Positions 11,111 through 64,000 of a stretch of DNA of 64,000 nucleotides are shown here, in pieces (position 1 is the stretch's first letter; the number at the start of each line of letters is the position of its first letter). The notes under the pieces were generated by a model. The model was not told the origin of the DNA. It worked only from the letters and a program-made list of their open reading frames with translations, and made no database searches. Position numbers and translations under genes: made by a program. Source of the stretch: a virus; IMG/VR virus record IMGVR_UViG_3300042569_002054; one strand, written 5' to 3'.

Positions 11111-11433
11111 TGGCTAACGAATATTACAATAGATACCAAAATTTTACTGTTGATGGAACAACTACATATATTCCTTTTGTTAACATTCCATTAAAAACTA
11201 CTGATAAGAAATACATCTATAAATTAGGTGTATCAAGATTGGATAAAGTTTCTCAGTTATATTATAACTCACCGTTTTATGGTTGGTTAATATTACAGTC
11301 AAATCCACAATACAGTGGTTCTGAATTAAATATTCCTGATAACGCCGTGTTGAATATACCATTCCCTTTATTGAGTTCTTTGTTAGATTATAAAACATCG
11401 GTGAAAGAATATTTCTATTATTATGGAGAGTGA
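11110..11433 (+). CDS. Baseplate protein, gp53 / LysM-like tail X family
   Basis: 107 aa; RLDKVSQLYYNSPFYGWLILQSNP...LNIP; TGATG overlap with upstream stop. Confidence 0.7.
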   Translation: MANEYYNRYQNFTVDGTTTYIPFVNIPLKTTDKKYIYKLGVSRLDKVSQLYYNSPFYGWLILQSNPQYSGSELNIPDNAVLNIPFPLLSSLLDYKTSVKEYFYYYGE

Positions 11434-45487: not shown

Positions 45488-46492
45488 ATGAGTTTAGTAA
45501 CAATAAATAGTTTGGGAGGAATACCTCCTTATGTTATTTCAGTTTGTGACATATTTCAATACTCTTGTCAAACTGTGACAACAATATATGATTATATTCC
45601 ACCATCTGTTAGTTTTAATATTCCGAGTCCATATTCATCGGCTCCAAAAGTTTTAATTAAAATAGTCGATTCTACAGGATGTATTTTCACACAAGAATAT
45701 ATGTGTGTAACACCTACTCCAACCCCAAGTATTACTCCAAGTGTCACCCCGACAATTTCTTTAACTCCTTCAAATACTCCAACACCAAGTATTACACCAT
45801 CATTTACACCTACACCGAGTATCACACCAAGTATTACACCTACACAAACAGTTACACCATCACATACCCCAACACAAACAATTACTCCAACAGTTACAAG
45901 AACTCCAACACCTACAGTTACACCTGACACTCCTATTTATGCTTATTTGTTCATTGAACCATACTCAGGTTCTGCTAGTGTTGGTTCTTACATGAATTCA
46001 CTTGGTTCTAATTTTTATGGATTTACAAATACTACTAAACCAAGTAGTTCGGCTAGTACATTTGATTTAGACATGAACAAATATGTTAACTTCTCAGGAT
46101 GGACAACAGGATTATTTCCAAATATTATAAAACAATTAGTACCATCGGCAAGTAGTGGACTTGATTCATACGGTAACCCATATCTTAAATATAATTTCCC
46201 AACAACAAAAGTACCTGAAAATACGGTTGGATGTAAAGCTTGGTACACTTGGATAATACCAATTAGCAGAACCAATAATCAATACCAAGTTGAGATTGAT
46301 TTGGGAATAGTTAATCCAAATGTCTTTACAAGTGTAAAGACGGAACCGACAATTTACGCTAATACATTTACTTATACAGGTAGTACTATTGCAAATACAA
46401 CATACAGGGTTTACACAACATACCCATCAAATACATTTGAATTGGATAATACTTATGACCTTTATTTTAGAGGAAGTAAGGTTGATATATAA
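45488..46492 (+). CDS. Adaptor-like protein with Pro/Thr linker (paralog of 56705-57913 C-domain)
   Basis: [11 protein letters not shown] linker; C-domain YAYLFIEP...GSYM...YTWIIP...TYRVY...LYFRG. Confidence 0.7.
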
Positions 46493-46501
46493 TTATAGTA
46501 A

Positions 46502-48499
46502 ATGAGTTTCCCATATAAAAATCCAATATCGTCTATCCAACTAAATGGAACACAAAGTGTACCAAGAAACAATACGTATGGTACTACTTTCAGTGTTAAT
46601 AATACGGGTGGTTATATGGAGGTTTTCAGTTTATCTGACCTTTATTATACAATACCATCGGGAACAACGGGAAGTATTGAATATTCGGGTAATACTATTC
46701 CTATTGAGTTTACAAAAGGAACGGGAACAGCTTGGTCACCTGATGTAATTACTTTGGCTTCAGATAATATTTCATCAGGTAGAAGACGACTTGGTATGTT
46801 GGCTTATGTTTATGAGGTTGACCAAGTTTACCAATATCATATTAATGATTACGAGACGTTATTTAATGCTGCGACTGCTAGTACGGGATGCGCTCAAGTA
46901 TCTGATTTTGGAACAACGATAAATAATAAAACTGCTGCGGGTCAGTCGTTTATTAATTCTTGGACTGCTAACACTATTGAAGATGTTAGTGGTGCAACAT
47001 ATAGTACTGCGGCATGGAGAAAGTTTTCGACAGGAACTGGAGGAGGTTCAGGATTTACGTCAGTTAGAATAAATAATGTTAGTCAATTTACGTCATCACC
47101 ATATAGTTATATTAATTTTAGTGGTGTTAATGTTGATATATCATCAGTTGGAAACAATACGATTGTATTATCGGCAAGTACTAGCGGAGGTGGTGGAGGA
47201 AGTGGTTCGTCAGGTAGTAGTGGTAGTTCAGGAACATCGGGAACTAATGGTAGTTCAGGTTCTAGCGGGATTAGTGGTTCTTCAGGTACTAGTGGTAGTT
47301 CAGGTTCTGCAGGAACATCGGGGAGTTCGGGTTCTACAGGTTCGTCAGGAACAAGTGGTAGTAGTGGAACTTCAGGTAGTTCTGGTACATCTGGTTCAAG
47401 TGGTAGTAGTGGTTCTTTAGGAACATCAGGAAGTAGTGGTACCTCAGGTAATGGTGGGTCATCGGGAACAAGTGGTTTAGATGGGATAAGTGGAACGTCA
47501 GGTTCTTCAGGGTCAAGTGGAAGTACTGGCTCTTCAGGAACTAGCGGAACATCAGGTTTAAGTGGTTCTTCAGGAACTTCAGGTAGTTCTGGTACATCAG
47601 GTTCATCGGGTAGTTCCGGTTCTGCCGGAACATCAGGTACAGGATTTACCACAATCACAAGTCCGGGTAGTAATAGAGTATTAACATCTGATGGGACATC
47701 TAATGCTGCGGTTGCTCAGGCTAGAATGACTTTTGATGGTACTACATTATCAGTTACAGGTAATACAAGTGTTAATGGTAATATAAGTACTACAGGTGTA
47801 ACATCTTTTGGTAACGGAACATTTACAAAGGCGGGGTCAGCTACTGGTGATGTTCTTCTTGATAATAATAGTACAGATACTCCGGGTGTTTTGTTTTATT
47901 ATGCTAATAATTCAAACTTTGGTATTGATAGTTTTAATGGGTCATTTGATGTTCTAAGTGGACAGTTAGTTCGTATCACAAATAATTTAAATGAAGCAGG
48001 AGGTGCGGTAAAAATGGCTATAGATACCACAGGTAATGTGGTATTTACAGGATTTATAAAGGCTAATGCGTGGAGAGCCGGTCAGGTAATTAACGATATT
48101 ATTTTGAGTAATACTGAGGTAACTGTTAGTACTACAACTATAGCTACCAGTAATTCGGATACTGATTTTGTTACTTATAGTTATACACCATTAAGTTCTA
48201 CAAGTTATTTAGTAATACATTATCATTTAGCATCTTTTGATTTTACTTCTGGTACAGGTAATGATTCATACATATCTAGAATAAAGGTTGATGGTGGTGA
48301 AATAACCTATTCAGTACAAAGCACGGTTAATGGATTTCGTACAGGTGTTTTATTTCCATTAACGGGTAGATACACTAACTCTAATACTACCGCAAAATCG
48401 ATAGTAGTTGCATGTCGTAGAAGTTTTGCGGATGATAATATCACAATAGTAAATTCATCTACTTCAATGTGGTTAAGAATAACAGAAGTTGCAAGATAA
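46502..48499 (+). CDS. Fibre protein with about 48 Gly-Ser/Thr-X triplets and C-terminal globular domain
   Basis: N-domain with SSGRRRLGM; G-X-Y tract 47204-47638; NRVLTSDG then beta-rich C-terminus. Confidence 0.75.
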   Translation: MSFPYKNPISSIQLNGTQSVPRNNTYGTTFSVNNTGGYMEVFSLSDLYYTIPSGTTGSIEYSGNTIPIEFTKGTGTAWSPDVITLASDNISSGRRRLGMLAYVYEVDQVYQYHINDYETLFNAATASTGCAQVSDFGTTINNKTAAGQSFINSWTANTIEDVSGATYSTAAWRKFSTGTGGGSGFTSVRINNVSQFTSSPYSYINFSGVNVDISSVGNNTIVLSASTSGGGGGSGSSGSSGSSGTSGTNGSSGSSGISGSSGTSGSSGSAGTSGSSGSTGSSGTSGSSGTSGSSGTSGSSGSSGSLGTSGSSGTSGNGGSSGTSGLDGISGTSGSSGSSGSTGSSGTSGTSGLSGSSGTSGSSGTSGSSGSSGSAGTSGTGFTTITSPGSNRVLTSDGTSNAAVAQARMTFDGTTLSVTGNTSVNGNISTTGVTSFGNGTFTKAGSATGDVLLDNNSTDTPGVLFYYANNSNFGIDSFNGSFDVLSGQLVRITNNLNEAGGAVKMAIDTTGNVVFTGFIKANAWRAGQVINDIILSNTEVTVSTTTIATSNSDTDFVTYSYTPLSSTSYLVIHYHLASFDFTSGTGNDSYISRIKVDGGEITYSVQSTVNGFRTGVLFPLTGRYTNSNTTAKSIVVACRRSFADDNITIVNSSTSMWLRITEVAR

Positions 48500-50346
48500 T
48501 GCCAATCCCACCGAATAAAATAAAATACTCAACGTCCTTTCATCCTAATACGATTAAAGTTAAGGATTGGGTTTTGGGTATTAATGAAGGTGCGGAATAC
48601 GGGCCAACAAGTGTTACAGGATTTTGGAATTCTATTATACCACCATCAGGTGGTTATACCATGTATGGAAACAAGGCAGTTGCTGGACCATCCATAGTGG
48701 TTGCTCAAAACGACTCAGAACTTATTGGTTTTACACAAGGATTTGCGGGACAAACATTTAATACTGCTAACGAAGCGTTAGGATGGTACACAGGACAAAC
48801 AGGTCTTATTTGTGTTAACCTTGATTACCCTGATATTATAACTGACGGATTAACATTATTACTTGATGCTGGTTATGTTTCATCATACCCAAGAAGTGGT
48901 TCACGATGGGATGATTTAAGTTTTAGTGGTAACAACGGAACACTAATTAATACTCCAACATTCAATTCAAGTAACAACGGATACCTCACATTTAACGGAA
49001 GTAATCAATATGTTAATGTTGCAGGTACTCCTGTTGGAATAACGGCATATACCAAAAACATTTGGTTTTATCTAAACTCAACGGCTGATAATAATTTATT
49101 AAGTAGTGATACTGGTGGACACTTTATGTTCTTTGCAGGTTCAAATAAATTATATTGTGGACATTCTGATTGGGGTAATTATACGGTTTTCCCATCGGTC
49201 ACTAACTTTAGTAATGGGGTGTGGTATAATGCGTGTGTAACTTTTGATACCATAAATGGATTTGTATTGTATGTTAATGGTGTTCAGGATAGTACATACA
49301 CCACTCAAAAGACACCTATAGGGGGTAATGGTTCAACAAGGATAGGAGCGTTTGGTGATGGAGGTAATCTATTAAATGGTAGGGTTTCAGTTGCTATGAC
49401 TTACAATAGAGTATTAAGTTCTACTGAAGTATTAAAAAATTACAATTCATTTTCGTCAAGATTTATTTCACCATCACCTACTCCGACAACAACAATAACC
49501 CCTACACCTACAATGACAGTTACCCCGACGATAACTCCAACAAATACTCAAACACCGACAAATACAATTACTCCAACACCTTCCATAACTCCGACTAGAA
49601 CTGTAACACCTACCCAAACACAGACACCGACAAATACGATTACTCCAACACCAACAAGTGTGGGTGGGGTAATTAGTGGTAATTTATTTATGAAGTTAGA
49701 TGCTACTAATTATGTTAGTGGTACTTGGACTGATGAAACGGGAAATGGAAATAATGCAACTATTAATGGTGCCACTTGGTTGTCTACTGACGGAGGTATT
49801 TTTGATTTAAATGGGACTAGTAATACAATAAGTATACCTCATACTGCTAATCTTAGTTTAAATACTACAACCCAAAGAACAATACAAGTTTGGGTTAAAT
49901 TTGACGTTTTACCTAGTTCAGGTCAACAAGTTCCGGTCTTTGGAAAACTATCCAGTTCATTTGGATTTGATGGGTATTGGGGTGGGTTATTCTCGAATGC
50001 TGGCGTTGTGAGGGTAGTTACAAATGGAACGGGGGTTCAAAAAATATCCGACTCTACGTTAACCGTTTCAATTAATACTTGGTATTTATTTACATTTGTT
50101 TCACGAATTACCTCAACTGCTAATACCACCAAAGTGTATATTAATAATACCGAATATATAACAACCGCTCATGGTACTGATACATATAGTGAAACTAACC
50201 CTCTTTATTTGGGTTACATTGGTACTGGTATATCATCACTTTATTTAAATGGTAAAATAGGTGCCTGTTATTTTTATACCACAGGATTAACCGCCAGTGA
50301 TGTAACAACAAACTATAATAATACTAAATCAAAATATGGATTATAA
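48499..50346 (+). CDS. Tandem LamG/concanavalin A-like lectin protein with Pro/Thr linker
   Basis: Start reassigned to TAATG overlap at 48499; two LLLDA/MKLDA...W.D.SGN.NN...WY....T....LYVNG...YNRVLS-type modules. Confidence 0.8.
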   Translation: MPIPPNKIKYSTSFHPNTIKVKDWVLGINEGAEYGPTSVTGFWNSIIPPSGGYTMYGNKAVAGPSIVVAQNDSELIGFTQGFAGQTFNTANEALGWYTGQTGLICVNLDYPDIITDGLTLLLDAGYVSSYPRSGSRWDDLSFSGNNGTLINTPTFNSSNNGYLTFNGSNQYVNVAGTPVGITAYTKNIWFYLNSTADNNLLSSDTGGHFMFFAGSNKLYCGHSDWGNYTVFPSVTNFSNGVWYNACVTFDTINGFVLYVNGVQDSTYTTQKTPIGGNGSTRIGAFGDGGNLLNGRVSVAMTYNRVLSSTEVLKNYNSFSSRFISPSPTPTTTITPTPTMTVTPTITPTNTQTPTNTITPTPSITPTRTVTPTQTQTPTNTITPTPTSVGGVISGNLFMKLDATNYVSGTWTDETGNGNNATINGATWLSTDGGIFDLNGTSNTISIPHTANLSLNTTTQRTIQVWVKFDVLPSSGQQVPVFGKLSSSFGFDGYWGGLFSNAGVVRVVTNGTGVQKISDSTLTVSINTWYLFTFVSRITSTANTTKVYINNTEYITTAHGTDTYSETNPLYLGYIGTGISSLYLNGKIGACYFYTTGLTASDVTTNYNNTKSKYGL

Positions 50347-50351
50347 ATAAA

Positions 50352-51215
50352 ATGGCAACATCACGACCTTTTGCATATAATACAGGCTCAACAATTTCAG
50401 GGACAGAACAAGTTGGAAGTATTGCTATTGGATACCCAACAAGTGGTTTTACATCCACAGGTTTAAGATGGTGGAATGGGCCTGATGAAGATTTGGGATA
50501 TGTTATTGCTCACACCGTACCGTCAGGAACACAACCAAATCCTGTTGGAGTTCCTGCTTATATCGGTTTTTGGAGAACACCAAGTAAGACAGATAATAAC
50601 TTTATTAGTTTATCTCAGTATGTATCAAGTTTTACCGGAACACCACAAACATTTGCAAGTGCTTCAGCGGCTAAGACATGGTTAAACTCGGCGGGATATT
50701 GGACATCTTGGGATTTAAGTTATACTGCAGGAGTATTTAAAACAACTTATAGTGGGTACTTTAATGATAATGTTAATTTCTTTGCAACCGCAACTCCCGC
50801 ATCAGTAGGTGGAAATCCTGCGACTTCAGTACAAACCACCGAGATAACAGAACCCCCAACCAGTGACGGTGAGAATTTCAGTTGTCAATGGTTAGGTTAT
50901 TTCAAACCAACTACTACAGAAACTTACACATTCTTTACTTCATCTGATGATGCTTCCTATGTTTGGGTTGGTAGTAATAGTATTTCAGGATTTACAACAA
51001 CAAACTCAACAGTTAATAACGGTGGATTACATGGGACACAAGAACGTTCAGGTACAATTGCCTTAACTGCTGGTACATATTATCCGTTACGAGTACAATT
51101 TGGAGAACTAAGTGGTGGTGACGTGATGACTTTTAGTTATTCAACTCCGACTATAACAAAAACAACCAACGTAACAGGTTTAATTTTTTATAATTTGGTA
51201 ACAAGCGGATTTTAA
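50352..51215 (+). CDS. PA14-domain carbohydrate-binding protein
   Basis: FSCQWLGYFKP..TETYTFFTSSDDAS, GLHG, LTAGTYYPLRVQFGELSGG. Confidence 0.85.
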   Translation: MATSRPFAYNTGSTISGTEQVGSIAIGYPTSGFTSTGLRWWNGPDEDLGYVIAHTVPSGTQPNPVGVPAYIGFWRTPSKTDNNFISLSQYVSSFTGTPQTFASASAAKTWLNSAGYWTSWDLSYTAGVFKTTYSGYFNDNVNFFATATPASVGGNPATSVQTTEITEPPTSDGENFSCQWLGYFKPTTTETYTFFTSSDDASYVWVGSNSISGFTTTNSTVNNGGLHGTQERSGTIALTAGTYYPLRVQFGELSGGDVMTFSYSTPTITKTTNVTGLIFYNLVTSGF

Positions 51216-51285
51216 AAACTAAAACTTATTAATTTATTTCTTTAATTTTTATTTAAAATTAATACTTTTTGTGTAAAACATTTAC

Positions 51286-52530
51286 ATGAAAATTTTTATA
51301 CAAGTTGCCTCTTACAGAGACCCCCAACTAATCCCAACTATACAGTCAGCATTGGAAAATGCTAAACGACCTGAAAACTTAGTTTTTGGTATTGCTCGTC
51401 AGTTTCATCCTGATGATAATTTTGATAATTTAGATGAATATAGGAATGATGAAAGATTTAGAATAATCGATATTCCATACACCGAATCCAAAGGAGCTTG
51501 TTGGGCAAGAAATCAAATACAACAAGTATATGGTAAGGAAACTTACACTCTTCAAATTGACTCACACATGAGGTTTGCTCAAAATTGGGATGATGAGATG
51601 ATTAAGATGGTTAAACAACTTCAAAAGAAAGGATATAAGAAACCTTTATTAACAGGTTATGTTTCATCCTTTGACCCTGACAATGACCCCAACCTACGTG
51701 TTAACGAACCATGGAGAATGGCGTTTGATAGATTTATTCCTGAAGGTGCGGTTTTCTTTTTACCTGAAACAATTCCTGGTTGGCAAAATTTAACTGAACC
51801 TGTTACCGCAAGATTTTACTCGGCTCACTTCTGTTTTACTCTTGGAAAATTTGCTAAAGAAGTTCAACACGACCCTGAGTTTTATTTTCATGGTGAAGAG
51901 ATTTCAATCGCTGCAAGAGCATACACTCATGGATATGATTTATTCCACCCACATAAAGTTTTAATTTGGCATGAATATACTCGTAAGGGTAGAACTAAAC
52001 AATGGGATGACGATAAACAATGGGTTGATAAGAATAATTTTGCTCATAAGAAAAATCGTTCTCTATTCGGTATGGATGGTGAGGAAGATATGAATCACGG
52101 GAAGTATGGGTTTGGTAAAGTTAGAACTTTAAGAGATTATGAAAAATATTCAGGTCTTTTATTTTCAAAGAGAGCCGTTCAACAATATACGTTAGATAAA
52201 GGTTATCCACCAAATCCAAATAACTTCAATTCAGAAGAAGAATGGTTAAAGTCATTTACATCGGTATTCAAACATTGTATTGATATTGGGTTTACTCAAG
52301 TACCTGAAAAGGATTATGACTTTTGGGTTGTTGCGTTCCATAATGAATTAGATGAAACCATTTACAGACAAGATGCTGATAAAGGTGAGGTTGATAGAAT
52401 GTTAAGAGACCCTGATGGTTATTGTAAAGTTTGGAGAGAGTTCTTAACTGATTCAAAACCTAAATATTGGGTTGTTTGGCCTCACTCGGAATCTAAAGGA
52501 TGGTGTGATAGAATAACAGGAAATTTATAA
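51286..52530 (+). CDS. GlcNAc transferase-like glycosyltransferase (GT60 / Skp1 GlcNAcT-like)
   Basis: IFIQVASYRDP, GACWARN, LQIDSHMRF, FHGEEI, DLFHP, WHEY. Confidence 0.8.
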   Translation: MKIFIQVASYRDPQLIPTIQSALENAKRPENLVFGIARQFHPDDNFDNLDEYRNDERFRIIDIPYTESKGACWARNQIQQVYGKETYTLQIDSHMRFAQNWDDEMIKMVKQLQKKGYKKPLLTGYVSSFDPDNDPNLRVNEPWRMAFDRFIPEGAVFFLPETIPGWQNLTEPVTARFYSAHFCFTLGKFAKEVQHDPEFYFHGEEISIAARAYTHGYDLFHPHKVLIWHEYTRKGRTKQWDDDKQWVDKNNFAHKKNRSLFGMDGEEDMNHGKYGFGKVRTLRDYEKYSGLLFSKRAVQQYTLDKGYPPNPNNFNSEEEWLKSFTSVFKHCIDIGFTQVPEKDYDFWVVAFHNELDETIYRQDADKGEVDRMLRDPDGYCKVWREFLTDSKPKYWVVWPHSESKGWCDRITGNL

Positions 52531-52533
52531 GAT

Positions 52534-53244
52534 ATGAAATTTACATTTGCTACTTTTTGTTTTGGTGAAAGATATTATAACCAAGTTAATAGATTTATTG
52601 GTGATATCGTAGAATCGGATTATAAAACAAATTTGGTTGTTATTACCGATGACCCAAGTAAGATTAATAATCAAGAATTTGTTCACACTTTCAACATTAA
52701 TGATTTTAATCCAAATTATTTGGAGTATGCTAAAAACTACTATGATTTTGATTTTTCAGTTAAGAGATATTCGTTAAGAGCTGCTTTAAGTATTGGTTTT
52801 ACTAAAATGATTTTAGTTGATTGTGATATGAGAGTTAACCCATCTTTCTTTAATGAAGAAAAGATTTTAGGAGCGTTTGATGAGAATTGTTTATCAGGGC
52901 CAGTAACATATAATTTTAACGAACAAGTTCATACCAATAGTGAATTAGGTAGACGATTACTTGAGTATGAAAAGTATTTCAATCATGAGGTTAATAAAGA
53001 TAAGTTGGAGGTTATGCCTGAAGATTGTATCCAATACTTGAGTATTGATGAAGATAAGTTTAATAGTTTTTTAGATACTTGGGACAAGTGTATCGAATAT
53101 AAAAAAGAAAAAGGTTTGAGAAACATACCCGCAGGTAACATAGACGAGATGTGTTTCTCGGCGTTATCTAATGGAATTGAAATAAAAAATAACGCTTATA
53201 AAGCATCAAATATAATATACGCAGAACATGACAAATGGTACTAA
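52534..53244 (+). CDS. Putative GT-A fold glycosyltransferase
   Basis: LVVITDD, KRYSL, ILVDCD (DxD), IDEMCF; inside the GT cluster. Confidence 0.55.
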   Translation: MKFTFATFCFGERYYNQVNRFIGDIVESDYKTNLVVITDDPSKINNQEFVHTFNINDFNPNYLEYAKNYYDFDFSVKRYSLRAALSIGFTKMILVDCDMRVNPSFFNEEKILGAFDENCLSGPVTYNFNEQVHTNSELGRRLLEYEKYFNHEVNKDKLEVMPEDCIQYLSIDEDKFNSFLDTWDKCIEYKKEKGLRNIPAGNIDEMCFSALSNGIEIKNNAYKASNIIYAEHDKWY

Positions 53245-54082
53245 AATAATTTCAGCAATTTATGAATTAAAATATGTTGAAGGGATTAATAGTGAAAGAT
53301 ATAAAAATTTTCCATTATTGGTTGCAACGATTAAAAACATAATTTATCCTGAATATCGTTACGTAATTTATACTGACCAAAATTCATATGATAAGTTTAA
53401 TTTAAAGTATGAATTTAATTTCCCAAATGTTGAATTTAAATTTAAAGAATTAAATACATCTGAAACTTGTGAATTAATTGACAGAATTAGAACTCAAGAA
53501 TTATCAGGTGGAATTAACTATGATAGAATTTATTGTGTAAACAATTATTTGGAAGTTGTTTTAAATAAACTTCAATTCTTAATTGATGAGTCACATGATT
53601 GTGATAATATCTTTTGGATTGATGCTGGTTTGATTGGAACATCTTGTCATGACGGGTGGAGAGATTATATGGCTCCGTTAATTAACTCAAAAAACTTTTT
53701 GGATAAGGTGGTTGATAAGATAAATCAACATGGATTTATCCATTTAAAAGGTAATTCAATTGTCATGAATTATGAAACGGTTGCTAAGTTTAACGACCTA
53801 TTTGGTGTTGAATTAAAGGTTGTTCCTGGATGTCTATTTGGTGGAACATCAGAAAAAGTTAGACATATTTTAGACGGATATTTAGACATTTTTAATCAAT
53901 ACTTAACCACACATAACCAACTTATTAGTGAACAAGAGGTTCTTACGGCTATTACAGGTAAACATTCGGATGAATGTCACGCTTTTGAATTTGGTGATTG
54001 GTTAGACTTACAAAAAGCGTTTTTAGACATTTTAGACATTTATGATGAGACAAAATATGTAAGGGAGAAGTGTTATGTTTAG
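53228..54082 (+). CDS. HtrL/YibB (WlaTC)-like putative glycosyltransferase
   Basis: YVIYTD, FWIDAGL, GCLFGG, SEQEVL. Confidence 0.6.
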   Translation: MTNGTKIISAIYELKYVEGINSERYKNFPLLVATIKNIIYPEYRYVIYTDQNSYDKFNLKYEFNFPNVEFKFKELNTSETCELIDRIRTQELSGGINYDRIYCVNNYLEVVLNKLQFLIDESHDCDNIFWIDAGLIGTSCHDGWRDYMAPLINSKNFLDKVVDKINQHGFIHLKGNSIVMNYETVAKFNDLFGVELKVVPGCLFGGTSEKVRHILDGYLDIFNQYLTTHNQLISEQEVLTAITGKHSDECHAFEFGDWLDLQKAFLDILDIYDETKYVREKCYV

Positions 54083-54638
54083 TCTTAACATTGTTTGTAC
54101 TTCAATTGGGAGAGAAACTCTACCAAGATTAATTGAGTCATTCAAAGACCAATTAGACCCAACAGATATTTTTACAATAATCTCAGATATTAATCACGAC
54201 TTTGTTTCAGAAGTATTATCAAGATATGAGTTTAAATTCAAAGTTAATCACATATTAAATCAAGGGGAACAAAAATGGAAATACGGACATCCGTTAATTA
54301 ATGAAAACATTAATTCATTAGAAGGTGATTTTATAATGTTTGCCGATGATGATGATAGATACACTGAAGACGCATTTAAAGTAATCAAAGAAACTATTAA
54401 AGATAAAAACAAATTATACATATTCAAACACAATTGGTTAGGTGATATTAATTGGAGATTAAAAGATTTCACAAGAGGTAATGTAGGGAAATGTATGGGA
54501 GTGATTCCAAACACACATAATTTACCGATGTTCCAAGAAGATGTTTTTGGGGATGTTATTTTTTATGAAGAGATAGGTCAAATGTTTGAAAGTGAATTTG
54601 TTGATTACATAATCTATAAAGTTAGACATACGGAATGA
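54075..54638 (+). CDS. GT2-like glycosyltransferase (short)
   Basis: TSIGRETL, IMFADDDDRY. Confidence 0.6.
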   Translation: MFSLNIVCTSIGRETLPRLIESFKDQLDPTDIFTIISDINHDFVSEVLSRYEFKFKVNHILNQGEQKWKYGHPLINENINSLEGDFIMFADDDDRYTEDAFKVIKETIKDKNKLYIFKHNWLGDINWRLKDFTRGNVGKCMGVIPNTHNLPMFQEDVFGDVIFYEEIGQMFESEFVDYIIYKVRHTE

Positions 54639-56305
54639 GTAATATTACATTAGTTACAGGATTGTGGAATATTGGAAGAGAAAATCTTGAAGAAGGTTGG
54701 TCTCGTTCTTTTTCACATTATTTAGAAAAATTTGAACAACTATTAAAAGTTGAAGAAAACTTAATAATTTTTGGTGAAAAGGAATTGGAGGAATTTGTTT
54801 GGGAAAGAAGAGACCAAAGTAATACCCAATTTATTTTAAGAGATAAGAGTTGGTTTGTTGAAAATGACTTTTACAATAAAATACAAGAAATTAGAAATAA
54901 TCCTGAATGGTATAATCAATCAGGGTGGTTAAAAGAATCAACACAAGGTAGATTGGAAATATACAATCCACTTGTTATGTCAAAAATGTTTATATTAAAT
55001 GATGCAAGGATTTTTGATAAGTTTAATTCAGAGTTTTTATTTTGGATTGACGCTGGACTTACAAATACTGTTCACCCCGGATATTTCACACATGATAAGG
55101 TGTTAGATAATTTAAGTAAGTATATAGATAAGTTTACATTTGTTTGTTTTCCATACGATGCAAGTAATGAGATACACGGATTTTCATATCCAAAGATTAA
55201 TCAGTGGGCTGAAGATGATGTAAAAAAAGTTGCTCGTGGTGGATTTTTTGGAGGTCCTAAAGAAACCATATCACAGATGAATGGTGAATACTATAACCTA
55301 TTGAATGATACACTATCAAGTGGGTACATGGGAACGGAAGAGTCAATATTTTCAATAATGGTTTATAAGTTAAGTGAATACATAAATTATTTTGAAATTG
55401 AATATAATGGTTTATTTGGGAAATTCTTTGAGGATTTAAAAGATGATGTTTTAGTTAAAAAGACAGAGTTTGTTAAAATTCAAAATGATTTAGATATAGA
55501 TAAAGTTGCGTTGTATGTAATAACATTCAATTCACCAAAACAATTTGAAACATTAATTAAATCTATGATTGAATATGATAGGGATTTCTTGGAAAAACCA
55601 AAGAAATTTTTATTGGATAACTCTACAGATTTATCAACAACTGAAGAATACTTAAAACTTTGTAAAGAATATGACTTTGAACATATTAAAAAAGATAACA
55701 TAGGTATTACAGGTGGAAGACAATGGACTGCGGAACACTTTGATGAAACGGGGTTGGACTATATGTTATTCTTTGAGGATGATATGTTTTTTTACTCACA
55801 AAAAAATGAAGTGTGTAGAAATGGGTTTAACAGATATGTAAGTAATCTATATCAAAAAAGTTTAGAGATAGTTAACAAAGAAAACTTTGATTTTTTAAAA
55901 TTAAATTTTTCAGAGTTTTATGGTGATAATAGTACTCAGTGGAGTTGGTATAATGTTCCACAAAATTTCAGAGAACAACATTGGCCAAAAAATCCAAGAT
56001 TACCTCAACAGGGTTTAGACCCAAATGCTCCAAAAACAAAATTCAACGAGATTAAAACACATAAAGGTTTACCATACGCTTCAGGTGAAATTTATTTGTG
56101 TAACTGGCCAATAATCCTTTCAAAAAGTGGGAGTTATAAATGTTATTTGGAAACAAAATATCAACACCCATATGAACAAACTTTAATGTCTCATAACTTC
56201 CAAAACACAATTAAAGGTAAATTAAAACCAGGTATTTTATTACTCACTCCTACCGAACATGATAGATTTGAACATTATGATAGTAATTTAAGAAAAGAAT
56301 GTTGA
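54635..56305 (+). CDS. Two-domain glycosyltransferase: HtrL/YibB-like plus GT2-like
   Basis: ITLVTGLWNIGR, FWIDAGL, GGFFGG, MGTEESIF; second domain YVITFNS, LLDNS, MLFFEDD. Confidence 0.65.
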   Translation: MSNITLVTGLWNIGRENLEEGWSRSFSHYLEKFEQLLKVEENLIIFGEKELEEFVWERRDQSNTQFILRDKSWFVENDFYNKIQEIRNNPEWYNQSGWLKESTQGRLEIYNPLVMSKMFILNDARIFDKFNSEFLFWIDAGLTNTVHPGYFTHDKVLDNLSKYIDKFTFVCFPYDASNEIHGFSYPKINQWAEDDVKKVARGGFFGGPKETISQMNGEYYNLLNDTLSSGYMGTEESIFSIMVYKLSEYINYFEIEYNGLFGKFFEDLKDDVLVKKTEFVKIQNDLDIDKVALYVITFNSPKQFETLIKSMIEYDRDFLEKPKKFLLDNSTDLSTTEEYLKLCKEYDFEHIKKDNIGITGGRQWTAEHFDETGLDYMLFFEDDMFFYSQKNEVCRNGFNRYVSNLYQKSLEIVNKENFDFLKLNFSEFYGDNSTQWSWYNVPQNFREQHWPKNPRLPQQGLDPNAPKTKFNEIKTHKGLPYASGEIYLCNWPIILSKSGSYKCYLETKYQHPYEQTLMSHNFQNTIKGKLKPGILLLTPTEHDRFEHYDSNLRKEC

Positions 56306-56334
56306 TTTTTTGATATTTATTTAAAAAACTATTA

Positions 56335-56703
56335 ATGGAATTTTTTATTAACAAAGGTGCAACACTGCCTGTTCTTAAAATGCAAGTGGTTAAAGATGGT
56401 ATTGCTGACATAACAGAGTTTATGTCATTAATAGAAAACTCGTTGATTTATTTTTCCATGATAGATGTTAAAACGGGAGGTTACAAGATTCTGAATAAGA
56501 AAGGAGGGTTTGTTGAAAAGACATTTATTGACCCAAACGCTGAGACAGAGTACTATGTTTATTATAAATTCACTTCAAGCGATACAAGTAGAGAGGGACT
56601 TTATGAAGGAGAGTTTGTTTTTATCACTGATACAGGAACTTATATTTTACCAATCAGAGAAAAACTTACGATAAAAATTGGTAATAGTTACGTATCTATT
56701 TAA
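56335..56703 (+). CDS. BppU-like baseplate/fibre attachment domain protein
   Basis: FFINKGATLPVLKMQV, YYKFTSSDTSREGLYEGEF, YILPIRE; preceded by TATTTAT. Confidence 0.55.
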   Translation: MEFFINKGATLPVLKMQVVKDGIADITEFMSLIENSLIYFSMIDVKTGGYKILNKKGGFVEKTFIDPNAETEYYVYYKFTSSDTSREGLYEGEFVFITDTGTYILPIREKLTIKIGNSYVSI

Positions 56704-56704
56704 T

Positions 56705-57913
56705 ATGGAATGGTTTATTAAGAAAAATTCAACGTTACCAGTTTTCCAAGTTGAGATATCAAAAGACGGAAGAAGTGATTTTGGTTTAGATGAAAATATT
56801 TCGGGTAATACAATTTTAATTTCGGTATATGATGAAGTTAATAAGAAATATATTGTAGCGTCTAAAGAATGTTATATTACAACAAGTGCGTCTACTGTTA
56901 ATCCTTTAGATATTACTTATTATGTAAACTATCAATTTACAAGTAGAGAAACTAAAAATGAGGGTAAGTTTTTAGTTCAGTTTTTAAAACAATCATCTCA
57001 GGGTATTGTTATTATACCATTACCTCAAAAAATTTATGTAAGTGTTCTTAGTAGTTTTAGTTTAAACTCTTACTCTTATCCGACTAATAATCCTTACATT
57101 ATTGATAGACCATGTTGTAACGCACCAGCTCTACCTGCAACACCTACACCAACACCATCTATTACTCCAAGTGTTACTCCAACAATGTCTTTAACACCAT
57201 CACTAACTCCAACTCTCACACCTACAACAACTACAACACCTACATTTACTCCTACACCATCTATTACAACACCACAATATTATGCTTATGTATTCGCAGA
57301 ACCACAAGATTCTTCGGCAAGTGGTTCGTTGTATGGATTAGGAAGTTATATGTATTACTTATCGGATGGTATAACACCTGATACTAATGTTAATTGGTAC
57401 GGATGGGGTAACTCGGGAGCTCTTCCATTACCAACAAATCCAAACTACAGTTATATGATGAACAAATACTCATCATACTCAGGATTTACAGGTGGAACAG
57501 GAAACTTTGTTAAACCTACAGACTTAAAAGGTGCGTTAAATCAATTCCCAAATACTATCAATGATAGTTTTGGATGTTTAATTAACCAATACACTTTTGA
57601 AACAATAGAAGTTAATAATAGTGATATTAACACTAGTTTACAGTACATGTATACGATTTGGATACCACTTGATGGTGTCGGAGGAACTTTAAATAATATG
57701 AGTGTAAATGTTGGTTATCAATCACAACCTTGTGACTTTGATATTTTAGCAACTCCTGACCCTAAAATTTCGGTTGGGGATATTACAATAACTCCAGGTG
57801 GAGCGATACCTGCGGGAACTTATAGAGTATTATACTTATCAAACGATGGATTGTTACCTCCAAAACTTCCTGATAATAACAATTATTATTTCAAAGGGGT
57901 GTATAAAACCTAA
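56705..57913 (+). CDS. Adaptor protein: BppU-like N-domain, Pro/Thr linker, C-domain paralogous to 45488-46492
   Basis: Start reassigned to ATG 56705 (MEWFIKKNSTLP, paralogous to previous gene's MEFFINKGATLP); YAYVFAEP...GSYM...YTIWIP...TYRVLY...YYFKG. Confidence 0.7.
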   Translation: MEWFIKKNSTLPVFQVEISKDGRSDFGLDENISGNTILISVYDEVNKKYIVASKECYITTSASTVNPLDITYYVNYQFTSRETKNEGKFLVQFLKQSSQGIVIIPLPQKIYVSVLSSFSLNSYSYPTNNPYIIDRPCCNAPALPATPTPTPSITPSVTPTMSLTPSLTPTLTPTTTTTPTFTPTPSITTPQYYAYVFAEPQDSSASGSLYGLGSYMYYLSDGITPDTNVNWYGWGNSGALPLPTNPNYSYMMNKYSSYSGFTGGTGNFVKPTDLKGALNQFPNTINDSFGCLINQYTFETIEVNNSDINTSLQYMYTIWIPLDGVGGTLNNMSVNVGYQSQPCDFDILATPDPKISVGDITITPGGAIPAGTYRVLYLSNDGLLPPKLPDNNNYYFKGVYKT

Positions 57914-57943
57914 AAAAAAGATAATTATTAGTAAGTAAAAAAA

Positions 57944-60900: not shown

Positions 60901-63900
60901 AAGAGGAACTAGCGGAACATCAGGAAGTTCTGGTTCTGTTGGAACTAGTGGAACGTCTGGTTCAGTAGGAACTAGCGGAACATCTGGAACAAGTGGTTCA
61001 TCAGGTTCTAGCGGTAGCGCTGGAAGCTCAGGAACGTCAGGTTCTAGCGGTAGCACAGGTTCAAGTGGTTCTACTGGCACGTCAGGTTCTTCAGGAACAA
61101 GTGGTTCTGTAGGTACAAGCGGAACATCTGGTTCCTCAGGAAGTGTAGGTACTTCAGGTACTAGTGGAAGCTCAGGAAGTGTAGGAACATCTGGTTCAAG
61201 TGGTACTACTGGTACCTCAGGAACATCAGGTAGTTCAGGTTCTAGCGGAAGTTCAGGTTCAAGTGGAACTAGTGGTAGTTCAGGAAGTTCTGGTTCATCG
61301 GGTAGTAGCGGTAGTTCTGGTAGTGTAGGAACATCTGGTTCTTCAGGAAGTTCTGGTTCAAGTGGTTCATCCGGAAGTTCAGGTTCTACAGGTTCAAGAG
61401 GAACATCGGGTACTTCAGGAACTAGCGGTTCAAGTGGAAGTACAGGAACTAGTGGTACATCAGGTTCAACGGGGACTTCAGGAACAAGTGGTTCAACTGG
61501 AACATCAGGTACAAGTGGAAGTACAGGGTCTTCAGGAAGCTCTGGTACGTCGGGTAGTGTAGGTACTAGCGGTAGTTCAGGCTCTAGCGGAAGTACAGGA
61601 ACTAGTGGAACCTCTGGTTCAACAGGGACTAGCGGTTCATCAGGTAGTTCAGGTTCAAGTGGAAGTTCAGGTAGTAGTGGTAGCGTTGGAACTTCTGGTA
61701 CATCAGGTTCAAGTGGTTCTTCAGGAAGTGCAGGTTCTAGTGGAAGTACTGGAACCTCAGGAACATCAGGTAGTTCTGGTTCTTCAGGTAGTTCAGGTTC
61801 AAGTGGTAGTGTTGGAACATCAGGTTCATCGGGTAGTGTAGGTACTAGCGGTTCTTCTGGTTCAAGTGGAAGTTCAGGTTCTAGCGGAAGTACAGGGTCA
61901 AGCGGAACTAGTGGTAATTCAGGTTCGTCTGGTTCAAGTGGAAGTTCAGGTTCATCTGGAAGTGTAGGAACAAGTGGAACCTCAGGTTCAGTAGGTACAA
62001 GTGGTACATCAGGAAGTTCAGGCTCAAGTGGTAGTACGGGTTCATCTGGTACTAGCGGCTCTTCGGGAAGTACTGGGTCATCTGGAAGTTCAGGTTCAAC
62101 AGGAACTAGCGGTTCTTCAGGAACATCAGGTAGTAGCGGTTCTAGTGGTAGTGCTGGAACAAGTGGTAGTTCTGGTTCTGTTGGTACATCTGGGTCAAGC
62201 GGAAGTAGTGGTTCATCGGGAAGTGTAGGCACATCCGGTTCTTCAGGCTCTAGCGGTAGTGCTGGAAGTTCAGGAAGTGTTGGTACATCAGGGACTAGTG
62301 GTAGTTCAGGTTCTTCTGGTTCAAGTGGTAGTGTTGGTACATCAGGTACTAGCGGTTCATCAGGTACTAGCGGTTCATCAGGGTCAAGCGGAACTAGCGG
62401 TAGTTCAGGTTCTAGCGGTTCTTCAGGAAGTTCTGGGTCATCTGGCTCTTCAGGTAGTACAGGTTCAAGAGGAACTAGCGGTACTTCAGGAACTAGTGGT
62501 AGTGTAGGTACATCCGGTTCTTCAGGTAGTTCGGGAACATCAGGAAGTAGTGGAAGTTCAGGTTCTGCAGGTACAAGTGGAAGTGTAGGAACATCTGGAA
62601 CTTCTGGTTCAAGTGGGTCATCAGGTTCAAGTGGTAGTGTTGGAACTAGCGGTTCATCAGGAACAAGTGGTTCGTCAGGTTCTAGCGGTAGTGCTGGAAG
62701 CTCAGGAAGTACTGGTTCATCAGGTTCTGCGGGAAGTGCTGGTACATCAGGGGTTAATGGTTCTTCAGGAACATCAGGTTCTGCTGGCTCAAGTGGAAGT
62801 TCAGGTTCTTCAGGTAGTTCGGGTTCAGTAGGTACAAGCGGAACTTCAGGTTCATCAGGTAGTGCTGGCTCGTCAGGGTCTAGCGGTTCTGTTGGTACTT
62901 CAGGTAGTAGTGGAACATCTGGAAGCTCTGGCTCAAGTGGTAGTGCGGGTTCATCAGGGAGTAGTGGAACTTCAGGTTCATCAGGAAGTTCAGGTTCAAG
63001 TGGTAGTACGGGGTCTTCAGGAAGTTCTGGTTCAACAGGTTCTAGAGGAACTAGCGGAACATCAGGTTCATCTGGAAGTGTTGGTACTTCAGGAACGTCA
63101 GGTTCAGTAGGTTCGTCTGGTTCTTCAGGAACTTCAGGTTCAGTAGGTACTAGTGGAACATCTGGAAGCTCTGGCTCAAGTGGTAGTGCGGGGTCATCAG
63201 GGAGTACTGGTACAAGTGGAAGTTCGGGTTCAACTGGTACTTCAGGTTCAAGTGGAAGTAGTGGCTCATCAGGTTCTTCAGGGAGTACTGGTACAAGTGG
63301 AACATCAGGTTCTAGTGGAAGTAGTGGTAGTTCAGGGTCATCTGGTTCTGCAGGTACATCAGGAAGTAGTGGAAGTTCAGGGTCTAGCGGTAGTTCTGGT
63401 TCATCAGGTACATCGGGAACTAGCGGAAGTTCAGGAACTTCAGGTAGTAGTGGGTCATCAGGTTCAACGGGTAGTTCAGGAAGTAGTGGAACAAGTGGTT
63501 CATCTGGTACTTCAGGTTCATCTGGCTCAAGTGGTAGTACGGGTTCTTCAGGAAGCTCAGGCTCAAGCGGAAGTTCTGGTTCAACAGGTTCTAGAGGAAC
63601 AAGTGGAACTTCTGGTTCGTCAGGAACTAGCGGAACGTCAGGAACATCAGGCTCAAGCGGAAGTGTTGGAACATCTGGTTCGTCAGGAAGTACAGGAACA
63701 TCAGGTAGTGCTGGTTCTTCTGGCTCAAGTGGTAGTTCAGGTTCAAGTGGAAGTACTGGAACATCAGGTTCATCAGGTTCTAGCGGTAGTACTGGAAGCT
63801 CAGGAACGTCAGGTTCTGTAGGTACAAGCGGGACATCAGGAACTTCGGGAAGTACTGGTTCTAGTGGTAGTTCAGGAAGTTCTGGTTCATCGGGTAGTAC

Positions 63901-64000
63901 AGGTACTTCAGGAAGCTCAGGTTCAAGTGGAACTAGTGGTTCTTCAGGGTCTAGCGGTTCATCGGGTTCTAGTGGAAGTTCAGGGTCATCTGGTAGTACA
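57944..64000 (+). CDS. Giant Gly-Ser/Thr-X collagen-like fibre protein, at least 2019 aa, 3'-truncated (missing from ORF track)
   Basis: Hand translation: MAIPYQNPIS...SDNFSSGRRRLGM...WRVF (paralog of 46502 N-domain), then G-X-Y repeats; no in-frame stop seen to 64000. Confidence 0.9.
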   Translation, partial: MAIPYQNPISASQITGPFSVARTSPYGTNFNVLNVGGWQEAAYLTNLGLTFSGQGQQQLSVNNIPININIGNGTFSPTYLTLNSDNFSSGRRRLGMIVWVNETETAYQYQIDNYNDLWDAAVSANSVTQLSYETIIKNNTPEGQAFINAWTGSTIEGVSGVTRENARWRVFAQGTELTGGTYFSGTSTLELYNSDGTIISVTGITASGSNGSSGTSGSAGTSGSSGSAGSSGNSGSSGSAGTSGTSGSSGSSGSSGSAGTSGTSGTSGSSGDSGSSGSAGTSGSSGSAGTSGINGVDGASGTSGTSGSSGLSGTGGSSGTSGTSGSSGSSGSSGSVGTSGTSGSSGSSGTSGTSGTSGSSGSSGSSGSSGSSGTSGSTGTSGSSGTSGTSGSSGSAGSSGLSGSVGTSGSSGSSGSSGSSGTSGSSGSSGSTGSSGSSGITGSSGTSGSSGTSGSSGSSGSSGSSGSSGSSGSTGSSGTSGTSGTSGTSGSSGSTGTSGSTGTSGSSGSSGSSGSSGLTGSSGTSGSSGTSGSSGSSGSSGSSGSTGSSGTSGSSGTSGSSGSSGSSGSSGSVGTSGTSGSSGSSGSSGSVGTSGTSGSSGSSGSSGNTGSSGTSGSSGTSGSSGSSGSSGSSGSSGSSGSSGSVGTSGTSGSSGSSGSSGVNGSSGTSGSSGTSGSSGSSGSSGSSGSSGTSGSSGSSGSSGSTGSSGSAGTSGSVGTSGSSGSSGSSGSTGSSGTSGSSGSSGTSGSSGSVGTSGSSGSSGSSGSSGSTGSSGTSGSSGTSGTSGSSGSSGSVGTSGSSGSVGTSGSSGSVGTSGTSGSSGSTGSSGSSGSSGSVGTSGSSGTSGSTGTSGTSGSSGSSGSSGSSGSSGTSGTSGSVGTSGSSGSSGSTGTSGSSGSSGSSGSSGTSGSSGSVGTSGTSGTSGSSGSSGSAGTSGSVGTSGTSGSSGSSGSSGSTGSSGTSGSSGSSGSAGTSGSSGSSGSTGSRGTSGTSGSSGSVGTSGTSGSVGTSGTSGTSGSSGSSGSAGSSGTSGSSGSTGSSGSTGTSGSSGTSGSVGTSGTSGSSGSVGTSGTSGSSGSVGTSGSSGTTGTSGTSGSSGSSGSSGSSGTSGSSGSSGSSGSSGSSGSVGTSGSSGSSGSSGSSGSSGSTGSRGTSGTSGTSGSSGSTGTSGTSGSTGTSGTSGSTGTSGTSGSTGSSGSSGTSGSVGTSGSSGSSGSTGTSGTSGSTGTSGSSGSSGSSGSSGSSGSVGTSGTSGSSGSSGSAGSSGSTGTSGTSGSSGSSGSSGSSGSVGTSGSSGSVGTSGSSGSSGSSGSSGSTGSSGTSGNSGSSGSSGSSGSSGSVGTSGTSGSVGTSGTSGSSGSSGSTGSSGTSGSSGSTGSSGSSGSTGTSGSSGTSGSSGSSGSAGTSGSSGSVGTSGSSGSSGSSGSVGTSGSSGSSGSAGSSGSVGTSGTSGSSGSSGSSGSVGTSGTSGSSGTSGSSGSSGTSGSSGSSGSSGSSGSSGSSGSTGSRGTSGTSGTSGSVGTSGSSGSSGTSGSSGSSGSAGTSGSVGTSGTSGSSGSSGSSGSVGTSGSSGTSGSSGSSGSAGSSGSTGSSGSAGSAGTSGVNGSSGTSGSAGSSGSSGSSGSSGSVGTSGTSGSSGSAGSSGSSGSVGTSGSSGTSGSSGSSGSAGSSGSSGTSGSSGSSGSSGSTGSSGSSGSTGSRGTSGTSGSSGSVGTSGTSGSVGSSGSSGTSGSVGTSGTSGSSGSSGSAGSSGSTGTSGSSGSTGTSGSSGSSGSSGSSGSTGTSGTSGSSGSSGSSGSSGSAGTSGSSGSSGSSGSSGSSGTSGTSGSSGTSGSSGSSGSTGSSGSSGTSGSSGTSGSSGSSGSTGSSGSSGSSGSSGSTGSRGTSGTSGSSGTSGTSGTSGSSGSVGTSGSSGSTGTSGSAGSSGSSGSSGSSGSTGTSGSSGSSGSTGSSGTSGSVGTSGTSGTSGSTGSSGSSGSSGSSGSTGTSGSSGSSGTSGSSGSSGSSGSSGSSGSSGST
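58565..64000 (+). repeat. 9-nt period coding repeat, about 604 Gly-X-Y triplets (X = S/T, Y = S/T/A/V)
   Basis: Gly codons at 58565, 59042, 60005, 61022, 62228, 63002 and 63992 are all multiples of 9 apart; the antisense shadow ORF shows Pro every third residue. Confidence 0.92.

Follow-up and report, generated by a model that had tools for sequence, protein, structure and literature searches.

A GT60-led glycosyltransferase island with an exchangeable cassette as a candidate protein O-glycosylation system of large freshwater phages

Introduction

What do five consecutive glycosyltransferase-like genes do next to the fibre genes of a phage? The question is raised by the IMG/VR virus record IMGVR_UViG_3300042569_002054, of which a stretch of 64,000 nucleotides (64 kb, hereafter the window) was analyzed. 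A glycosyltransferase (GT) island headed by a GT60 enzyme lies at 51286-56305, among genes for collagen-like fibres, lectin-type proteins and proteins with Pro-Thr (PT) linkers. We consider it probable (roughly 0.6) that the phage encodes, in this island, a cytoplasmic system for the O-glycosylation of its own proteins. The analysis establishes the families and folds of the enzymes, an architecture of two conserved bookend genes around a variable cassette, and the co-occurrence and adjacency of the island with PT-linker genes; the sugar donor and acceptor, the sequence in which the enzymes act and the role of the system are inferred.

The window has a low GC content of ~30% and carries all sizeable genes on the plus strand. 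Genes for a tail sheath, for proteins of the baseplate hub and wedge and for a replication set with SSB, a UvsX-like recombinase, a DnaB helicase and a class I ribonucleotide reductase (RNR) place its origin in a large contractile-tailed phage. A search for near-identical DNA in isolate phages returned no match. Related IMG/VR records measure 242-322 kb, with a CheckV completeness of 98-100% for three of them, and genome-wide statements on this freshwater lineage are drawn from the relatives G002-G005. The GT60 protein has 407 IMG/VR matches, of which 80 loci were compared; adjacency was counted on 70 loci.

The glycosyltransferase island

The island consists of five open reading frames (ORFs), every one of them glycosyltransferase-like and separated from the next by -17 to +3 nt. 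The five tightly coupled GT-like genes of the first-pass annotation were thus confirmed, each by Pfam, hhalign or AF2/Foldseek:

51286..52530, plus strand, GT60 enzyme: PF11397 at E 1.4e-68 and 232.4 bits against a cut-off of 21; phrog_24687 at E 5e-170
52534..53244, plus strand, GTb: no Pfam match; AF2 model with pLDDT 89.5, in Foldseek a GT-A fold closest to GT6 enzymes; invariant DxD
53228..54082, plus strand, GTc: GT-A fold (AF2/Foldseek); hhalign 96% to the HtrL N-domain, with the WIDAGL motif in common
54075..54638, plus strand, GT2-like short ORF: marginal Pfam GT2 match, 24.8 bits against a cut-off of 23.3
54635..56305, plus strand, two-domain HtrL-like enzyme: PF09612 at E 5e-13; TIGR02192 at E 2e-16

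Scans for sigma-70 promoters, terminators and the Bacteroidota -33/-7 pattern stayed at chance level, and therefore no operon structure is claimed.

In the GT60 enzyme, PF11397 is covered to position 349 of 352 in two stretches, as is also the case in G001. The protein carries an IDSH (DxH-type) motif, found as QIDSHMRF in the window and conserved as QLDSHHRF in ORF334 of Xanthomonas phage XacN1, a putative catalytic motif of the family by the GT27/GT60 literature. In a large protein database, its relatives amount to more than 7,000 clusters (90% identity). Those GT60 enzymes that have been characterised transfer alpha-GlcNAc to polypeptides, namely the Skp1 hydroxyproline-GlcNAc transferase Gnt1 and the Thr-GlcNAc transferase of Trypanosoma cruzi (PMC6939170).

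The two-domain HtrL-like enzyme matches PF09612 over aa 3-254 (49.7 bits against a cut-off of 24.1) and has the WIDAGL motif in this N-domain, of which GTc is a predicted paralogue. Since its NCBIfam equivalog score of 60.6 is under the cut-off of 264.9, the enzyme is classed as a member of the HtrL/YibB family and not as an orthologue of E. coli YibB. The C-domain, with an invariant FEDD, a match to phrog_842 (E 5e-5 on aa 334-418) and weak GT2-type matches that came as a protein-atlas lead, is probably a GT2-like GT-A domain. In sequence searches, the PDB yielded no usable match to GT60, the complete HtrL-like protein, the profile of its C-domain or that of the small downstream protein s122.

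No membrane segment was detected in any of the five island proteins (maximum 19-residue hydropathy <1.4), and all five enzymes are therefore predicted to be soluble. With a PF11397 score of 232 bits and five soluble GT-like ORFs, the earlier description of a GT60-led, phage-encoded multi-enzyme glycosylation system is supported.

A soluble GT60 enzyme could also serve a target outside the virion, such as cytoplasmic proteins of the host or the phage or a small molecule, for takeover or counter-defence. The eukaryotic GT60 enzyme Gnt1 does modify a cytoplasmic regulatory protein, Skp1 (PMC6939170), and PHROG places the GT60 family in the category 'moron, auxiliary metabolic gene and host takeover'. 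However, the prolyl hydroxylase of a Skp1-type route was present in only one of five genomes, and a target of this kind would leave both the association with PT linkers and the virion glycoprotein bands of XacN1 (see below) unexplained; we regard it as quite unlikely. A hydroxyproline route was rejected as a general mechanism, as PF13640 (P4H-like) occurs in one of five module-bearing genomes (G003 only) and far from the island. The G003 region 288908-291681 (L085, L086) holds two 2OG-Fe(II) oxygenase ORFs of the prolyl-hydroxylase-like type.

Pro-Thr linkers and collagen-like fibres as candidate acceptors

Among 50,697 isolate phage records, GT60 was found in four: Xanthomonas phages XacN1 and Xoo-sp13 and Stenotrophomonas phages RAS14 and CM1. 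We counted coding sites for the pattern (T/S)P x3 in these phages and in the freshwater relatives. All eight GT60-positive genomes had 7-51 sites (G002, 10; G003, 12; G004, 40; G005, 7; XacN1, 51; Xoo-sp13, 40; RAS14, 36; CM1, 36), in contrast to 0-3 sites in all 11 GT60-negative large phages. The latter (RsoM2USA, XbC2, CBB, RaK2, SCTP-2, Phosso, Vibrio 2.275.O, LR756508, Mel-JY01, Flavobacterium phage immuto and S-CAM7) had been picked by polymerase or tail sheath as the nearest relatives of both lineages. A reversed-pattern control gave 0-2 sites. The window itself contains three sites, compared with none in 100 shuffles.

The association extends to gene neighbourhood. In the freshwater lineage, a PT linker is present in the ORF directly 5' of GT60 at 34 of the 70 loci, compared with 1.4-3% of all ORFs in G005 and G002. 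These PT-linker ORFs come in more than 12 different architectures of 391-3289 aa, and LamG, CBM4_9, L-type lectin, CBM5_12, DUF285 and SprB domains are found among the 5' neighbours, which are predicted to be variable adhesin or receptor-binding proteins. The link between the GTs and Ser/Thr/Pro-rich virion-type proteins that the first-pass annotation had drawn is thus upheld by the PT sites, which are numerous in 8/8 GT60-positive and 0/11 negative genomes, and by the adjacency.

In the window, the island is flanked by the following genes:

45488..46492, plus strand, PT1: 334 aa; PT linker at aa 65-162; C-domain homologous to that of PT2; directly 5' of col1
46502..48499, plus strand, col1: 665 aa; Pfam Collagen (PF01391) at E 4e-18 and 65.3 bits; PHROG tail fibre families to E 2e-26
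48469..50346, plus strand, LamG-PT-LamG protein: Laminin_G_3 at E 9e-26 in two stretches; PT linker at aa 324-400; phrog_8510, virion structural, at E 1e-31
50352..51215, plus strand, PA14/GLEYA carbohydrate-binding-type protein: GLEYA at E 1e-18, PA14 at E 5e-15
56335..56703, plus strand, s122: small conserved protein 3' of the island; paralogue of the PT2 N-domain
56705..57913 (ORF from 56678), plus strand, PT2: s122-like N-domain, PT linker at aa 144-211, PT1-like C-domain; directly 5' of col2
57944 to beyond 64000, plus strand, col2: giant collagen-like fibre that leaves the window; N-domain 46% identical to that of col1

Every element that had been listed beside the GTs, i.e. three proteins with mucin-like linkers, two Gly/Ser/Thr fibres and the LamG and PA14 genes, was found in its place. 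PT1, the LamG-PT-LamG protein and PT2 each have 70-100 residues of PT-type linker. Col1 contains 47 Gly-X-Y triplets with 90% Ser/Thr, and col2 at least 603 Gly-Ser/Thr-X triplets with 93% Ser/Thr; neither has Pro in its triplets.

These fibres could be the main and original acceptors, Ser/Thr glycosylation stabilising a triple helix that lacks proline, as it does in Bacillus BclA or Riftia cuticle collagen. A collagen without proline would need another source of stability, as in Thr-glycosylated collagens, and in the window phage and its nearest relatives the two fibres, ~90% Ser/Thr and proline-free, flank the island. Their distribution speaks against such a role: collagen-like Gly-Ser/Thr ORFs are restricted to relatives whose GT60 is at least 96% identical, and none was found in G005, which has the same five GTs, or near the island in most of the 80 loci and in XacN1. 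Since they are confined to close relatives, the fibres would be at most an added, lineage-specific acceptor, and that they are the original one is unlikely. PT linkers are more likely than the Gly-Ser-Ser (GSS) collagen fibres to be the conserved acceptor, because the latter are limited to the closest relatives and missing in G005. PT1 and PT2 are accordingly named here as candidate acceptors and col2 as a possible lineage-specific one. Across genomes, the expectation that the GT cluster travels with Ser/Thr-rich partners was borne out for PT-linker proteins (8/8 versus 0/11); the GSS/GTS fibres, which had been put forward as partners too, accompany it in the closest relatives only, and G005 has the five GTs without them.

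Conserved bookends and an exchangeable cassette

The genes for GT60 (76-98% identity) and the two-domain HtrL-like enzyme (57-99%) were always present in the 80 IMG/VR loci, in constant order, and the slot between them held 2-13 genes drawn from 67 families. These include FkbM and other methyltransferases, rhamnosyl-O-methyltransferase/CmcI, TylF, GT25, GT10, GT11 and GT2, as well as more HtrL-like enzymes, DegT aminotransferases, UDP-galactopyranose mutase, nucleotidyltransferase, hexapeptide acyltransferase and HAD phosphatase. Phages that are near-identical on either flank hold unrelated cassettes. Between the window and L005/L010, a DNA homology of 92-95% stops at 52530-52533, the GT60 stop, and restarts at 54635, the start of the HtrL-like gene. 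Given these sharp borders, the three middle genes (52534..54634) are classed as one interchangeable cassette and not as fixed members of a pathway, with GT60 as the conserved 5' bookend, the two-domain HtrL-like enzyme as the 3' bookend and a hypervariable cassette between them. The proposal that the other four enzymes extend the glycan as a fixed set is not supported, as only the two bookends are conserved and the three genes between them swap.

Downstream of the island, s122 follows in nearly all relatives, and roughly half of the loci also encode, after the island, a PT2-type protein in which another s122-like domain is joined to a PT linker. The complete genome G005 has the same five GT genes at 67-83% identity. 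In the window phage the island directly follows the block of PT1, col1, LamG and PA14 genes, in contrast to G005, where it lies ~57 kb from the PT1/col1 homologues. A location inside the tail-fibre region therefore applies to the sub-lineage of the window and not to G005. In the latter, the island, s122 and PT2 are placed differently than in the window phage (G005 positions 105240-111571 versus 168069-169631; loci L092, L095), from which it follows that the whole module has moved within the lineage.

The cassette raises the alternative that the island remodels a glycan of the host envelope (lipopolysaccharide (LPS) or lipooligosaccharide (LOS) core, O-antigen or capsule precursor) on the cytoplasmic side of the membrane, for example against superinfection or adsorption to debris. 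HtrL/YibB, GT25, GT10/GT11, FkbM methyltransferases, GLF and DegT are typical families of LPS and O-antigen loci, a gene annotated as GT9 lies near the XacN1 island, and a hypervariable cassette between conserved flanks resembles O-antigen loci. The conserved initiating enzyme, however, is GT60, a family for which only protein acceptors are known. The island of the window contains no membrane-spanning initiating transferase, flippase, polymerase, ligase or transmembrane segment, and such membrane families are absent from the 25 most frequent of 42 Pfam families among the 67 cassette gene families. Envelope remodelling would also leave the co-occurrence with PT linkers and the glycoprotein bands of XacN1 virions unexplained, and we assign it a small probability.

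The same module in XacN1-group jumbo phages

The full-length two-domain HtrL-like protein is present in exactly those four of the 50,697 isolate phage records that bear GT60. In XacN1 (AP018399.1), the order is GT60 (ORF334), a carbamoyltransferase, a GTc-like gene, a 247-aa ORF with a DxDxD motif, and the HtrL-like ORF330, so that the carbamoyltransferase and GTc/GTb-like genes lie between homologues of the two bookends. With identities of 47% for GT60 and 43% for the HtrL-like enzyme, these are by far the most similar proteins of the window phage and XacN1, the tail sheath, helicase and RNR being only 24-33% identical. Because of this difference from the core proteins, the module is taken to have been either exchanged between lineages or held under unusual constraint.

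XacN1 encodes at least 15 PT-linker ORFs, one of which, ORF325 (3313 aa), adjoins both the GT island and the baseplate wedge gene. Six paralogous ORFs of ~400-750 aa, each with a PT linker, form a tandem array at 124048-133104, and the PT-linker giants are located at 203370-213311 (3313 aa) and 272200-280671 (2823 aa). At least two periodate-Schiff-positive glycoprotein bands were reported from XacN1 virions, and the phage's own GTs were suggested by the authors as their makers (PMC5852040, Suppl. Fig. S4). These authors annotated two GTs (ORF334/ORF328; PMC5852040); the GT60...HtrL module, its cassette and the PT-linker proteins were recognised in the present analysis.

On one side of the XacN1 island, the genes for DNA polymerase and RNase H adjoin. 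This neighbourhood of replication genes would suit an island for the sugar hypermodification of phage DNA, known from T-even phages and others, and phage GT-A enzymes can build diverse glycans on 5hmC and 5hmU (bioRxiv 10.1101/2023.12.21.572611). The HtrL-like C-domain has a weak match (E 5e-5) to a PHROG with the annotation beta-glucosyl-HMC alpha-glucosyltransferase, and the diversity of the cassettes would fit a restriction arms race. Known pathways of DNA sugar hypermodification, however, cluster with hydroxymethylase, TET or methyltransferase genes (bioRxiv 10.1101/2023.12.21.572611), and no thymidylate-synthase-type hydroxymethylase, 5mYOX/TET or C5-methyltransferase was found in or near the island. 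A ThyA-family gene, by its score of 314 bits a typical ThyA, lies at a great distance from the island in three of five genomes and is missing from the 98%-complete G003; a Tet_JBP search, which had no positive control, gave no match. No nucleic-acid acceptor is known for GT60 either, and DNA is in our judgement a very improbable substrate.

Proposed mechanism and significance

Virion proteins fold and assemble in the cytoplasm, and the general O-glycosylation of Bacteroidota is periplasmic and hence out of their reach. In the protein O-glycosylation system that we propose, the soluble GT60 enzyme would place the first sugar, by analogy alpha-GlcNAc from host UDP-GlcNAc, on Thr/Ser of extended PT linkers in structural or receptor-binding proteins in the host cytoplasm, with Gly-Ser/Thr collagen-like fibres as possible additional substrates in the sub-lineage of the window. 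The two-domain HtrL-like/GT2-like enzyme would then add a conserved core, and the cassette would complete a strain-specific glycan, by three GT-A enzymes here and in relatives by methyltransferases, fucosyl- and GT25 transferases, aminotransferases, UDP-Galp mutase and acetyltransferases. In the O-glycosylated PT linkers of bacterial glycoside hydrolases and in mucins, the glycan extends and stiffens the chain and protects it from proteases. In the phage, the likely outcome would similarly be linkers that are mucin-like, stiffer, extended and resistant to proteases, and a glycan coat of variable make-up on the host-recognition apparatus of the virion. Rapid turnover of the cassette points to a glycan on which selection acts at the virion surface.

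Several points weigh against this interpretation. GT60 and PT linkers co-occur in two lineages only, which therefore represents one or two evolutionary events. The island may simply sit in a variable host-recognition region where PT-linker proteins cluster anyway, in which case adjacency would reflect synteny and not coupling, and most PT-linker proteins of G005 are encoded far from the island. GT25, GT10/11, HtrL and FkbM are typical of LPS/LOS pathways, and the XacN1 island borders on replication genes, as described above. To our knowledge, there is no biochemistry for any phage or bacterial GT60 homologue, this phage included. Finally, the proteins behind the Schiff-positive bands of XacN1 were not identified, nor were the bands tied to ORF334 (PMC5852040).

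Virion O-glycosylation by phage-encoded glycosyltransferases is not without precedent: it was reportedly described for mycobacteriophages by Freeman and colleagues in Cell Host Microbe in 2023, a study cited in PMC12619734 and PMC10877033, and we know of no other phages in which virion glycosylation by their own enzymes has been demonstrated. The island resembles that system in that GTs are encoded beside structural genes and Ser/Thr-rich tracts occur in virion-type proteins made in the cytoplasm. In the mycobacteriophages, which are small actinophages, one or two GTs act on the C-termini of capsid and tail-tube subunits; the system described here, in contrast, is found in jumbo myoviruses, would be initiated by GT60, comprises 5-6 GT domains with two bookends and a hypervariable cassette, and has internal PT linkers of fibre or receptor-binding proteins as its candidate acceptors. 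With virion glycosylation known from mycobacteriophages and hinted at for XacN1, the putative novelty is the GT60-initiated bookend-cassette form.

Among eukaryotic systems, the Skp1 pathway of Dictyostelium and Toxoplasma is likewise soluble and cytoplasmic and starts with a GT60 enzyme, followed by a bifunctional two-domain GT (PgtA) and further soluble GTs (PMC6939170). Unlike the phage island, it needs a prolyl 4-hydroxylase and one defined Skp1 residue, and its extending enzymes belong to other families (PMC6939170). The GT60 pp-alpha-GlcNAcT that initiates T. cruzi mucins acts on Thr/Pro-rich mucin-like repeats in the sequence style of the phage linkers, but is a Golgi membrane protein, whereas the phage enzyme is soluble. 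Giant viruses (Vp54 of chlorovirus PBCV-1, mimivirus fibrils) also combine virus-encoded cytoplasmic GTs and methyltransferases to place unusual, clade-specific glycans on virion surface proteins; they differ in their eukaryotic hosts, in their GT families and in having no PT-linker acceptors, and the PBCV-1 glycans are N-linked.

Directly 5' of PT1, a 726-aa protein with SprB repeats, which we take to be the gliding-motility adhesin repeat of Bacteroidota, is encoded at 43280-45460. It is consistent with a Bacteroidota host and an adhesin-like virion protein, and because of these repeats the host is likely a freshwater member of this phylum. In habitat, size range and predicted host phylum the window phage resembles the 'moraphages', jumbo phages of freshwater Bacteroidota with genomes of 200-307 kb, in which four core orthologous groups are putative glycosyltransferases (PMC12619734). 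Their role was left between DNA, serotype and virion by the authors (PMC12619734).

If the proposed system is real, virion glycosylation would be widespread in environmental jumbo phages of Gram-negative hosts and would be initiated by a different enzyme family, one familiar from the cytoplasmic and mucin glycosylation of eukaryotes. The abundance of PT linkers in these phages would thereby be explained, and the swappable glycan cassette would open a new dimension of strain diversity in phages, akin to that of O-antigen loci in bacteria. Host recognition, stability and protease resistance could be influenced, and in phages meant for therapy or biocontrol, XacN1 and RAS14 among them, the glycan could affect immune or environmental persistence. 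XacN1 and the Stenotrophomonas phages are cultivable and hence a tractable test system. A wider formulation, which we put forward tentatively and with some doubt, is that phages possess a mucin-type O-glycosylation of their own, in which PT 'mucin domains' of virion fibre and receptor-binding proteins are primed by GT60 and coated per strain by a cassette at a recombination hot spot, with a very abundant module that travels together with PT linkers between unrelated jumbo lineages, namely phages of freshwater Bacteroidota and of Xanthomonadaceae.

Flanking genes and further observations

The LamG-PT-LamG protein is probably receptor-binding, and its gene probably starts at an internal ATG at ~48499; an internal ATG at ~56705 is likewise the probable start of PT2. 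A PT2 query matched a PT1 homologue at 32% identity. For s122, an assignment as BppU_N that came as a protein-atlas lead (12% of one cluster) was not confirmed, the Pfam matches at E up to 1 being noise. A 1837-aa frame on the minus strand (58486-63999), antisense to col2, was rejected as a gene and is a by-product of the GGN-AGY/TCN repeat; the plus-strand frame extends the N-domain homologous to that of col1.

Long Gly-Ser/Thr tracts are also found in L003, L006-L008 and G002, and among near-identical phages (L004-L010, L003 and the window) the length of the triplet tract ranges from 33 to >600. G002, the closest large relative, carries tandem giant Gly-Ser/Thr fibres on its minus strand, at 70258-78168 (2636 aa) and 78319-84315 (1998 aa).

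In the baseplate region of the window, three giant ORFs at 6332-11110, 11423-17530 and 30153-35750 (1592, 2035 and 1865 aa) have no Pfam or PHROG match; they are 41-44% conserved in G005, compared with 60-96% for neighbouring genes. The sheath gene of the window is truncated by the window start, and the tail sheath ORF of G005 (120910-124089, 1059 aa) is Ser/Thr-rich in its N-terminal part.

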